A stretch of DNA of 10,158 nucleotides, taken from the IMG/VR virus record IMGVR_UViG_3300042731_004120; one strand, given 5' to 3'. Every line of letters starts with the position of its first letter. Positions within the stretch are counted from its first letter, which is position 1. Source of the DNA: a virus. Below, one piece after another: positions 3,181 through 5,549 of the stretch. The notes beneath the pieces were generated by a model. The model saw only the letters and a list, made by a program, of their open reading frames with translations, was not told the DNA's origin and did not search any database. The position numbers were made by a program, and so were the translations under genes.

Positions 3181-3454
3181 ACCAAGGCTTATGGGCTATC
3201 GCCCGCCGGACGAGAAGTGGAAAAAAATGAAAGAGGTGTGGGACGCTTGCAACGCGGCGGGCGTCGATGTGCCTCAAGAGGTAGGCGAGTTCTTCGAGTG
3301 GGAAACCCCGGCAGAAGAAGGCGTGGAAGTCGATATTGAGAAGCACGAGTGCTGTGCGACGATGGGTCGAGAGTTCGAGCCGACCGGCTTCATCGTGGAC
3401 GTGACCAAGCTGCCGAAGGACGTGACGCTGCTCAGGTTCTTGGCCTACTACTAG
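3170..3454 (+). CDS. Hypothetical protein (94 aa, MSTRPRLMGYRPPDEKWKK...).
   Basis: ATG 3170 overlaps the upstream gene by 11 nt, with GGAGGA upstream. GC3 bias. The track's 3083 start lies inside the previous gene and is rejected. Confidence 0.65.
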   Translation: MSTRPRLMGYRPPDEKWKKMKEVWDACNAAGVDVPQEVGEFFEWETPAEEGVEVDIEKHECCATMGREFEPTGFIVDVTKLPKDVTLLRFLAYY

Positions 3455-3462
3455 GAGACGTC

Positions 3463-4473
3463 ATGGGAGAGATGGATAGCAAACGGTTGGCCGAGGAGAA
3501 CCGAATCCTGGAGGTGAGGGTCGGCTCGCATCTGTTCGGCACGGACAATGAGGACTCGGACCTGGATCTGGTCGGCGTGTACATGCCGTGGGATGACATC
3601 CTGTTCGGCGTGCGGTCCAAGAACGAGGTGGACCTGAGCGTCCAGGTCAAGGACGATACGGGACGCAATCTGCCGGAGTCCGTGGACAGGAAGTTCCACG
3701 ACATTCGCAAGTTCTTCCGGCTGTGCATCAAGGGCGCTCCGAACATCCTGCATGTGCTCATGGCGGACGAGCGGAACATCGTCTACAAGGACCCGTTCGG
3801 CTTCGCAGACCGGCTCATGGCCAAGGGCCCGGAGTTCATCTCGCTGGAGGCGCACGAGCGGTTCCTGGGCTACGCCAAGGCCCAGCGCCACAAGATGAAG
3901 ATCAAGCCCGAGAACTACCGGCAGTTGGAGGTTGGTCTGGAAGTGCTGTCGTGCTTCCAGGATCACATGGTCTTGGCAGACGTCGTGGCCGACAGTGCCC
4001 GGTGGGAAAAGACCGGAGCGTTCAAGGACGAGGGCCAGGGCAAGCACGTCAAGTGCGGGGATCTGAGTATCGAGCGCGGGACGTTCGTGAAGAAGGCCAG
4101 GAAGATGATTGAGCACCGGCTGTCCAGGGCCACGAACCGCGCCGTGTTGTTCACCAAGTACGGGTACGACGTGAAGTTCGCCAGCAACCTCATCCAGCTT
4201 CTCCTGGAGCTGAACGAGCTGGTAGAGACGGGCTGGATCGAGATGCCGTTGACCTACGCGCAGGACATTCTGGACATCAAGGCTGGCAAGTACCCGGTCG
4301 AGTACATTGACGAGTGGTCGGAGAAGCTGATCCTCGAAGCCGAGATGTTGGCCCAGGACAGTCCGCTGCCAGCACATCCCCCGTGGGACGATCTACACGA
4401 CTGGCTCATGTGCGAGGTGTGGAAGTGGGTGAGTCATCACACCAAGTATTGGGGTCAATCTCTCGAAGGTTGA
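3463..4473 (+). CDS. Pol-beta superfamily nucleotidyltransferase (337 aa). It resembles the PF10127-type 'predicted nucleotidyltransferase' common in actinophages.
   Basis: 'RVGSHLFGTDNEDSDLDLVGVY' matches the [GS]-x9-13-DxD minimal nucleotidyltransferase signature, with a large helical C-terminal region. ATG 3463 has GGAGA 4 nt upstream, directly after the TAG of the previous gene. The track's 3349 start overlaps the previous gene and is rejected. Confidence 0.85.
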   Translation: MGEMDSKRLAEENRILEVRVGSHLFGTDNEDSDLDLVGVYMPWDDILFGVRSKNEVDLSVQVKDDTGRNLPESVDRKFHDIRKFFRLCIKGAPNILHVLMADERNIVYKDPFGFADRLMAKGPEFISLEAHERFLGYAKAQRHKMKIKPENYRQLEVGLEVLSCFQDHMVLADVVADSARWEKTGAFKDEGQGKHVKCGDLSIERGTFVKKARKMIEHRLSRATNRAVLFTKYGYDVKFASNLIQLLLELNELVETGWIEMPLTYAQDILDIKAGKYPVEYIDEWSEKLILEAEMLAQDSPLPAHPPWDDLHDWLMCEVWKWVSHHTKYWGQSLEG

Positions 4474-4543
4474 CGAATTCGAGTGCGCCTGGTAGAGTCT
4501 GGGTCCTAGCCTGGCGAGAGCCAGAGGAAGTCCGGGGTGAATC

Positions 4544-4825
4544 ATGGAATCCAAGACGTCTAACGACACGCGAGAAGTGACCGTCAAGCTGGAGTCTGGT
4601 GCGGTCAACACGGTCGATACGAACGGCGAGCTGTGCAACCACGGCAAGCTCTGTCGGTGGCTGGGCATGGATTACGGGTTCGACAAGTGCACGCTGTTCA
4701 ACGAGCTGGTGCACCAGCACATCATGGGCAAGAAGGTCGGCAAGATCGACCGGCTCGACGTGTGCAAGCAGGCCGAGGCCAGGTTCGCTGGCAAGCTGCC
4801 GATGGAGGGCGGTCATGGACGCTGA
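4544..4825 (+). CDS. Hypothetical protein (93 aa).
   Basis: ATG 4544 follows a 70-bp gap with GGGGTGA upstream. GC3 bias. It overlaps the next gene by 11 nt. Confidence 0.7.
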   Translation: MESKTSNDTREVTVKLESGAVNTVDTNGELCNHGKLCRWLGMDYGFDKCTLFNELVHQHIMGKKVGKIDRLDVCKQAEARFAGKLPMEGGHGR

Positions 4826-5549
4826 GAAAATCAAGCCCCCGATCATCGACGGGCGCGAGGTGAAAGTCGGCGACAAGCTGGAGGGCATCGTGGAGTGGAC
4901 CGGGCGCGACCAGTATCTCGAAGGCGTGGTGTCCGAGATCACGAAGTACGAGATCGTGATCGACACGCCGCAAGGCGAGATTCGAGCGCAGCGGTCGAAG
5001 GTCTGCGACCCGGAGCCGATGAACGTGTTCACGGGCTGTACCGAGTGCGGCAAGAACACCGACAGGCTCACGACGGACAGGGAGCTGCCGGGCAAGCGAT
5101 TTTGTGTCGAGTGCTGGGACTCGTATCGCAGAGCGCATCCCAAGGTCATCGTGCTGTGCGGCAGCTCGCGGTTCGTAGACGTCATGGCCGTGTGCGCGTG
5201 GCTCTTGGAGAAGAACGAGGGCGCGATCGTGATGGGGCTCCACCTGTTGCCAGCCTGGTACAGCGAGGAGTCGATACCGGACCACCTGGCCGAGCACGAG
5301 GGTGTGGCCGAGCAGATGGACGAGCTTCACTTGCGGAAGATCGACATGGCGGACGAGGTGTTCGTCGTGAACGTCAAACACTACATCGGCGACAGCACGA
5401 CACGAGAGGTGGAGTACGCCAAGGACAAGGGCGTTCCGATTCGCTGGTACACGGATGACCCGATGGGCGAGCGAGTCCAGAACATGATCGAGGAGTTCCT
5501 CAAGAAGCACGAGCGGGGCGACCCGACGATGAAAGTGAGCAGGCGATGA
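4815..5549 (+). CDS. Zinc-ribbon (CTECGK...CVEC) fused to a Rossmann-like DUF4406 / nucleoside 2-deoxyribosyltransferase-like (SLOG superfamily) domain. 244 aa.
   Basis: ATG 4815 has GGAGGG 5 nt upstream. 'KVIVLCGSSRF' then 'DEVFVVNVKHYIGDSTTREVEYAKDKGVPIRWY' matches the DUF4406 pattern I recall (IYxxGP ... CDAIYxLpGWexSxGaxxExxxAxxxGxpV). The stop overlaps the RtcB start (ATGA). The track's 4599 start is rejected. Confidence 0.8.
   Translation: MDAEKIKPPIIDGREVKVGDKLEGIVEWTGRDQYLEGVVSEITKYEIVIDTPQGEIRAQRSKVCDPEPMNVFTGCTECGKNTDRLTTDRELPGKRFCVECWDSYRRAHPKVIVLCGSSRFVDVMAVCAWLLEKNEGAIVMGLHLLPAWYSEESIPDHLAEHEGVAEQMDELHLRKIDMADEVFVVNVKHYIGDSTTREVEYAKDKGVPIRWYTDDPMGERVQNMIEEFLKKHERGDPTMKVSRR

Follow-up and report, generated by a model that had tools for sequence, protein, structure and literature searches.

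A divergent, phage-borne protein family on the N-(deoxy)ribosyltransferase-like scaffold, represented in an uncultured virus by a three-part protein encoded next to rtcB

Nucleoside 2'-deoxyribosyltransferases (NDTs) and the hydrolase DNPH1 (Rcl) share a catalytic triad of Tyr, Asp and Glu (PMC10603095, PMC12884076). In human DNPH1, E55 and H56 serve to activate water and to stabilise the base as it leaves (PMC10603095). MilB and BcmB are N-glycosidases of cytidine monophosphate (CMP) and hydroxymethyl-CMP (hmCMP). In MilB and AvNRT the Tyr site holds Phe, a change that is associated with ribo-substrates (PMC10603095, PMC7308715). Three elements make up the 5'-phosphate pocket of DNPH1 and MilB: the β1 loop, a Ser that precedes the nucleophile and one residue contributed by the partner subunit (PMC10603095, PMC7308715). 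In phages, the DutZ-DmtZ pair consists of a deoxynucleoside triphosphatase (dNTPase) feeding an NDT-like dAMP glycosidase/transferase (PMC12884076). Here we analysed a 10,158-nucleotide stretch of viral DNA (IMG/VR virus record IMGVR_UViG_3300042731_004120), hereafter the window, in which a complete gene at 4815..5549 on the + strand encodes a protein of 244 amino acids plus stop codon, as read from the translated open reading frame (ORF) and its homologues. This protein has three parts, an SH3-like barrel, a putative C4 zinc ribbon and a C-terminal NDT-like domain. Within the known superfamily it represents a variant that is new, divergent and highly abundant, and its family carries a distinct active-site set (Val/His/Glu plus an invariant Lys and His) on the known scaffold.

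The C-terminal domain, residues ~108-235 (5136..5519, + strand), is predicted to adopt an N-(deoxy)ribosyltransferase-like / TIR-like flavodoxin fold. Its secondary structure runs from β1 (111-116), α1 (118-135) and β2 (138-140) through a short helix (158-161) and a longer one (165-177) to β3 (181-185), a helix (193-205), β4 (209-211) and a last helix (216-233). The superfamily of N-(deoxy)ribosyltransferase-like proteins, which comprises NDT, DNPH1, PA1492 and ADP-ribosyl cyclase, is defined by a flavodoxin-like three-layer α/β fold with a parallel sheet and an active site at the C-termini of the strands. The domain shows this fold, and in the model the conserved loop residues all lie at C-terminal strand ends. 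Structure comparison gave the highest score to 1T1J (PA1492; 11.0), followed by the N-deoxyribosyltransferases 6EVS (10.7) and 7O62 (10.4), the TIR domain of SARM1 (10.2), MilB (9.7), ThsB (9.5), YtoQ (9.2) and Rcl/DNPH1 (9.0). In a Foldseek search of viral models, the top match was an annotated viral N-deoxyribosyltransferase (E 8.7e-9, 32% identity); other NDT, DUF7768, DUF4406 and SLOG proteins came below it, with a DUF4406 protein as a weak match at rank 35 (E 6.6e-3). A literature search on the function of DUF7768 or PA1492 returned nothing relevant. The original prediction, made from the DNA letters and their translations, had proposed a small Rossmann-like fold, and on this point it was right; the non-Rossmann fold that would have refuted it was not seen.

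Across 263 domains of the family, C115/G116/S117, P146, Y149, H157, E160, H172, K175, Y190, G192, S194, T195 and E198 are 90-100% conserved (C115 90%, G116 97%, S117 97%, G192 100%, S194 95%, T195 98%, E198 99%), and W129, E132, H143, D169 and D177 are also near-invariant. The predicted nucleophile is E198 (codon GAG, 5406..5408, +), within the motif Y190-I-G192-x-S194-T195-x-x-E198-x-x-Y-A. It sits at the N-terminus of the helix after β3, as does the nucleophilic Glu of the triad. For profile comparison, the 263-sequence family alignment was run with hhalign against rat Rcl (PDB 2KHZ), a 120-sequence vertebrate DNPH1 profile and the NDT of L. leichmannii (LlNDT), the Rcl and LlNDT sequences having been checked against PDB. 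In the only well-scored stretch, E198 falls on the nucleophilic Glu of Rcl (E93) and of LlNDT (E98); the two templates agree, each weakly. The motifs quoted in the original prediction all exist and are conserved in the family, with some correction of detail: 'GDSTTREVEYA' holds the conserved Glu, which is E198, its second Glu (E200) being variable, 'GVPI' leads into strand 209-211, and VLCGSS, described as a Gly-rich loop, has a single Gly.

Further elements may belong to the predicted site. The β1-α1 loop C115-G116-S117-S118-R119-F120 (5157..5174, +; family conservation 86-97%) is a predicted phosphate/lid loop and resembles C15-G16-S17-I18-R19-G20 of DNPH1/Rcl; in an extended maximum-accuracy (MAC) hhalign alignment of low confidence, LCGSSRF pairs with FCGSIRG of Rcl. 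Between β2 and the next long helix lies a family-specific segment, L142-H-L-L-P146-x-W-Y149 ... D156-H157-L-A-E160-H-E162-G163 (5238..5303, +), in which P146, H157 and E160 are 99-100% conserved. The MAC alignments to Rcl and LlNDT, again of low confidence, pair P-D156-H157-L-A-E with T-E44-H45-V-A-D of Rcl (human DNPH1 E55-H56). Finally, H172 (codon at 5328..5330, +) is 100% conserved and, by motif alignment, a candidate for the site of the general-acid Asp of NDT/DNPH1.

These features set the family apart from the described enzymes. DNPH1/Rcl (PDB 2KHZ, 4FYH, 8OS9) and MilB/BcmB (PDB 4OHR) have no significant sequence or profile similarity to it; where they carry the triad Tyr or Phe the family has V113, and where they carry the general-acid Asp it has H172 or K175. 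The LHLLPxWY segment is an addition of the family, and its invariant K175, E132 and Y190 have no described counterpart in those enzymes. A possible likeness to the 5'-phosphate pocket of DNPH1/MilB consists of CGSSR resembling CGSIR, in an alignment of low confidence, and S194/T195 lie 3-4 residues before E198, compared with six between Ser87 and E93 in Rcl. Relative to the nucleoside 2'-deoxyribosyltransferases (PF05014; PDB 6EVS, 7O62, 1F8X), the family lacks equivalents of Tyr7 and Asp72, and the Asp92-type ligand of the 5'-OH is absent, with G192 and S194/T195 found instead. Phage DmtZ keeps Tyr6/Asn77/Glu103 (PMC12884076), unlike the family, which has no triad Tyr.

Assignment of the domain to an existing sequence family was less successful. 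The original prediction placed it in DUF4406 (PF14359) or PF05014, membership of which we took as a Pfam hidden Markov model (HMM) match at or above the gathering score. The window protein has no match to DUF4406, PF05014, LOG or TIR models even at E≤10. DUF4406 is not among the top families of 147 relatives, and only four of these 147 match PF05014, all below threshold (best E 7.3e-4). Scans of the window protein against PHROGs, NCBIfam and PADLOC gave nothing significant, and the family profile had 0 matches among PDB sequences at E≤10. A TIR domain (as in SARM1, ThsB or MyD88) was rejected in the absence of a TIR match in Pfam, of a defence context and of a PADLOC match. LOG/SLOG, for which the motifs GGGxGxMG and PGGxGTxxE together with a Pfam LOG/SLOG match were required, was rejected as well, with no Pfam LOG match and the first motif, GGGxGxMG, absent.

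To assess the size of the family, homologues were collected from several sources. One search returned 599 homologues with a ~130-residue core 60-70% identical to the window protein; most are stand-alone proteins of 134-150 residues, without a Pfam match on the NDT-like domain and, where they bear a name, called 'hypothetical protein'. In an exhaustive search with a profile, representative clusters (50% identity) came to 7,287 at E≤1e-3, of which 4,574 at E≤1e-10, and the gene under study is therefore not a chance ORF. Family loci numbered 181 in IMG/VR and 30 in GTDB genomes, the latter mostly contigs of metagenome-assembled genomes (MAGs) whose assignments cover many bacterial phyla and one methanogen, while GenBank phages gave only three weak matches (37-39% identity). 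The NDT-like domain thus defines a very large, unannotated, mostly stand-alone and phage-borne family, nearly confined to uncultured phages and lacking a model in Pfam, PHROGs, NCBIfam and PADLOC.

Extensions of the domain are frequent and diverse, and fusions to other domains were also found. In P0111, seen on two contigs from two samples, the domain is followed by a C-terminal dATP/dGTP pyrophosphohydrolase (PF04447, E 5.7e-19). The N-terminus of P0231 is MazG/PRA-PH-like by sub-threshold Pfam matches only, with no PDB relative, and counts as a hint. Both parallel the phage DutZ-DmtZ pair. As separate observations, in the metagenomic protein P0033 (276 residues) the domain is duplicated in tandem, and its second copy lacks the LHLLPxWY...DHLAEHEG segment, retains CGSTRF, LHLRKID and YIGESTxxE, has no Pfam match and may represent a sister family. 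A ~60-residue module (…MRPY.x.GEDL.GVSVS..D.P..G.MIARN..N..D.W.V...Y….YE) is fused C-terminally in P0003 and P0038 and N-terminally in P0124; it has no Pfam match and was not found in the fetched loci.

On the model and the conserved residues, the C-terminal domain most likely edits a nucleotide. Our preferred reading, to which we give a probability of roughly 45%, is that it is an N-glycosidase or a base-exchange enzyme (transferase) acting on a substrate resembling a nucleoside monophosphate (NMP). The β1 loop C115-G-S-S-R119 and the G192-x-S194-T195 loop would hold the 5'-phosphate of such a ligand, and the invariant E198 would attack C1' of the sugar, cleaving the N-glycosidic bond via a covalent glycosyl-enzyme intermediate. 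H172 (or K175) and the D156-H157...E160 element would deal with the base that leaves and with the water or acceptor base that enters, this element after β2 being the putative counterpart of DNPH1 E55-H56. With V113 in place of the triad Tyr, the sugar may be ribose, since the Phe that MilB and AvNRT have there accompanies ribo-substrates, or sugar discrimination may differ. The two pyrophosphatase fusions, one clear and one sub-threshold, speak for this reading. Identity stays at 60-70% across phages and MAGs of many bacterial and archaeal phyla, as would suit a small-molecule substrate that is universal, and such conservation across hosts suggests one. During infection, the enzyme would serve to eliminate a single nucleotide species or to exchange its base.

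Several observations weigh against this reading. Of the canonical triad only the Glu is conserved: the Tyr (Phe in ribo-specific members) expected in β1, three residues ahead of the loop Gly, is replaced by V113 (I/V in the family), and no general-acid Asp (or Asn) was found at the aligned position in the helix before β3. The alignment at the Asp site is itself ambiguous, as hhalign places K175 there, which is 100% conserved, while the motif [D/H]-L-x-x-[I/L]-x-x-x-D before β3, aligned among Rcl, LlNDT and the family, points to H172. The hhalign comparisons with Rcl, the DNPH1 profile and LlNDT were not significant (E 0.045-0.1); the value of E 0.063 against the DNPH1 profile comes from an all-vertebrate set of low diversity and limited power, and a forced global alignment was meaningless. 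Neither Pfam nor PDB nor hhalign tied the family significantly, by sequence profile, to a characterised NDT or DNPH1. Among ~270 sequences there is a single clear NTP-pyrophosphatase fusion, and in ~120 loci no neighbour from nucleotide metabolism is conserved. Remodelling of the deoxynucleoside monophosphate (dNMP) pool, as put forward in the original prediction, is a reasonable hypothesis and not a finding; the canonical triad Tyr and Asp are not conserved.

The remainder of the protein is particular to its clade, homologues of the N-terminal 108 residues being restricted to it. Residues 1-66 (4815..5012, +) form a small β-barrel, SH3/Tudor/KOW-like, which the original prediction overlooked. 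In the syntenic relative L119 the barrel is encoded by a separate 65-residue gene (P0388), and the NDT-like protein has a different N-terminus without a zinc ribbon, an arrangement that reveals a fusion/fission event linking barrel and enzyme. The predicted ribbon, located by a regular expression, would be of C4 type, C75-x2-C78-x18-C97-x2-C100 (5037..5114, +), so that the spacing of 17 residues given earlier should read 18. All four Cys are kept in the full-length orthologue P0002 (65% identity to the window protein), the model places a β-hairpin at 86-96, and Pfam matches of the region, to DksA/TraR-type zinc fingers, are sub-threshold only. Such a ribbon, described earlier as unusual, is recurrent and not unique: ~6% of relatives have a CxxC...CxxC ribbon-like motif, at the N- or C-terminus. 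Barrel and ribbon would be lineage-specific add-ons, probably tethering or regulating the enzyme.

The reading frame first proposed at 4815-5549 was confirmed. A Shine-Dalgarno-like GGAGGG (4804..4809, +) stands 5 nt before the ATG at 4815, and the N-terminus MDAEKIKPPII is matched in P0002 (MSDEKIKPAII) and in P0388. The Shine-Dalgarno-like sequence lies within the 3' end of another ORF, 4544-4825 (+), whose stop overlaps the start of the gene by 11 nt. This 93-residue ORF, between RlaP and the gene under study, has no Pfam or PHROG match and is absent from L119. Ahead of it, at 4470-4498, is a promoter-like site, such sites being no more numerous than in shuffled sequence. At the other end, the stop codon and the rtcB start overlap in an ATGA (5546..5549, +), an overlap present with the same 4 nt in the relatives L115 and L119; the original prediction had spoken of translational coupling to rtcB. 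With overlapping stop and start, a single strand, no + strand terminator detected between 3300 and 7300, and an arrangement kept in relatives, the gene and rtcB form a predicted translationally coupled operon in this one clade.

The gene is part of a string that includes two RNA-repair genes. Upstream lies a gene for an RlaP-family RNA-repair nucleotidyltransferase (3460..4473, +; PF10127 E 4.1e-16, phrog_388 E 1.7e-46) and immediately downstream the gene for the RNA ligase RtcB (5546..6727, +; PF01139 E 1.2e-109). RlaP and RtcB are a recognised RNA-repair pair (PMC12776372, PMC7824862), which the original prediction did not mention. In L115 the order is kept, with a fused orthologue followed by rtcB, and L119/L120 are fully syntenic with the window at 59-85% protein identity; RlaP of L119 is 75% identical, and the RlaP and RtcB pair (L119 3082-6263) 75-85%. 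The closest RtcB of a cultured phage, Caulobacter phiCbK, shares only 43% identity, so the window represents a phage lineage without a close cultured relative.

Beyond this clade no neighbour was conserved. RtcB or RlaP occurred within 6 kb in none of 114 other loci with a 60-70% identical domain, and linkage to RtcB, RlaP or ThyX as a family property was rejected: in tblastn searches with every window protein, L115 was the only one of 115 loci with RtcB and L096 the only one with ThyX. ThyX (7224-8054 in the window) was thus within 6 kb in one of the 115 related loci, and the P0114 contig has it at a distance of ~8 kb. The argument drawn earlier from a nearby ThyX and an HD-type deoxynucleotidase is weak and does not generalise: ThyX is near in about two other relatives, and the supposed 'HD' gene belongs to DUF5662. 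When 1,527 ORFs from 84 loci were clustered all against all, no conserved partner emerged, the best being a DNA methyltransferase in 10 of ~71 loci. The 147 immediate neighbours, scanned with Pfam, proved a mixed set with genes for replication, recombination, terminase and lysis, none of them in more than two loci. On long contigs the family gene lies among small early genes, methylases, HNH and DUF5131 genes, again without a conserved neighbour. As no neighbour is conserved and RtcB and RlaP occur in one clade only, the function of the family would be autonomous.

Other readings of the domain are less probable. The domain might act in anti-defence, binding as a sponge or cleaving a nucleotide-derived immune signal, such as cyclic ADP-ribose (cADPR) isomers, His-ADPR, cyclic oligonucleotides or cyclic mononucleotides, and thereby blunting Thoeris-, CBASS- or Pycsar-type immunity. 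We consider this unlikely: there is no PADLOC match, the fused domains are NTP pyrophosphatases and not known signal-degrading domains, NDT and (d)NMP-glycosidase structures score highest, a literature search for NDT-like anti-defence proteins found nothing relevant, and a pure sponge would not need the invariant Glu/His/Lys set. Absence of the general-acid Asp would be less of a difficulty for a glycohydrolase or base-exchange enzyme directed at nicotinamide adenine dinucleotide (NAD+) or nicotinamide mononucleotide (NMN) and serving the takeover of the host or the salvage of NAD. Nicotinamide leaves readily and does not need a general-acid Asp to do so, as in TIR domains, and retron NDT-like effectors are likewise not known to need one. 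Destruction of NAD+ would, however, normally harm the phage, no NAD-salvage neighbours (NadV, Nudix, Macro) were seen in the neighbour scans, and the pyrophosphatase fusions point to (d)NMPs, which makes such an activity improbable.

The genomic position of the gene also raises the question of a role in RNA repair. In this clade the protein could be an accessory of the RlaP-RtcB module, its barrel and ribbon bringing the domain to damaged RNA or to the ligase. Its place between the two genes, with overlapping stop and start and no terminator detected, is consistent with this, as are the order RlaP, barrel, NDT-like domain, RtcB kept in L115 and L119/L120 at 65-85% protein identity and the frequent binding of nucleic acids by SH3-like barrels and zinc ribbons. 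The three genomes are nevertheless close syntenic relatives, whose gene order may reflect ancestry and not functional linkage, the 114 other loci have neither RtcB nor RlaP nearby, L119 has no zinc ribbon, and NDT-like enzymes are not known to act on RNA, so we see only a slim chance of an accessory role. Slimmer still is the chance that the clade's protein is an NDT-like glycosidase/transglycosylase of the RlaP-RtcB operon that removes or exchanges a toxin-damaged or modified base, within RNA or at its end, or clears a nucleotide by-product that blocks ligation. If true, such base-level RNA repair would add a step absent from known RNA-repair pathways.

Other features of the window were noted in passing. 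The DUF5662 gene (1833-2414; PF18907 E 4.7e-36) carries an RHDASK/HH motif, and its sequence has no relative in PDB. On contig L123, which is unrelated, a distant DUF5662 gene (5692-6150) directly follows a stand-alone family member (pairwise E 5e-4). Co-occurrence with DUF5662, searched in ~120 loci with a three-sequence HMM, was seen in L119 and L123 alone, a number too small to build an argument on. An ORF resembling Major Vault Protein (MVP) (8521-10158, +; 546 residues visible) lies next to ThyX on this phage-like contig and runs off its 3' end. Its product matches PF17795 Vault_3 above the cutoff (E 2.3e-10) and, more weakly, Vault and Vault_4, and its counterpart in the syntenic relative L119 (8322-9373) has an 879-residue product with MVP_shoulder. 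Long antisense ORFs of 300-430 residues on the - strand (for example 1308-2462, 3451-4377 and 8527-9816) overlap + strand genes; most likely they arise artefactually from G+C-rich sequence, as all conserved genes are on the + strand.

Returning to the preferred reading of a nucleotide-editing N-glycosidase or transferase, the scaffold and nucleophile of the family are those of enzymes that cut or swap nucleobases, and its catalytic set is different. Its substrate could reveal a common phage editing of the nucleotide pool, as DmtZ does for Z-genomes, or a widespread counter-defence enzyme. The family would also offer a new scaffold for NDT-type biocatalysts, the stand-alone domain being small and one that should be easy to express and screen.
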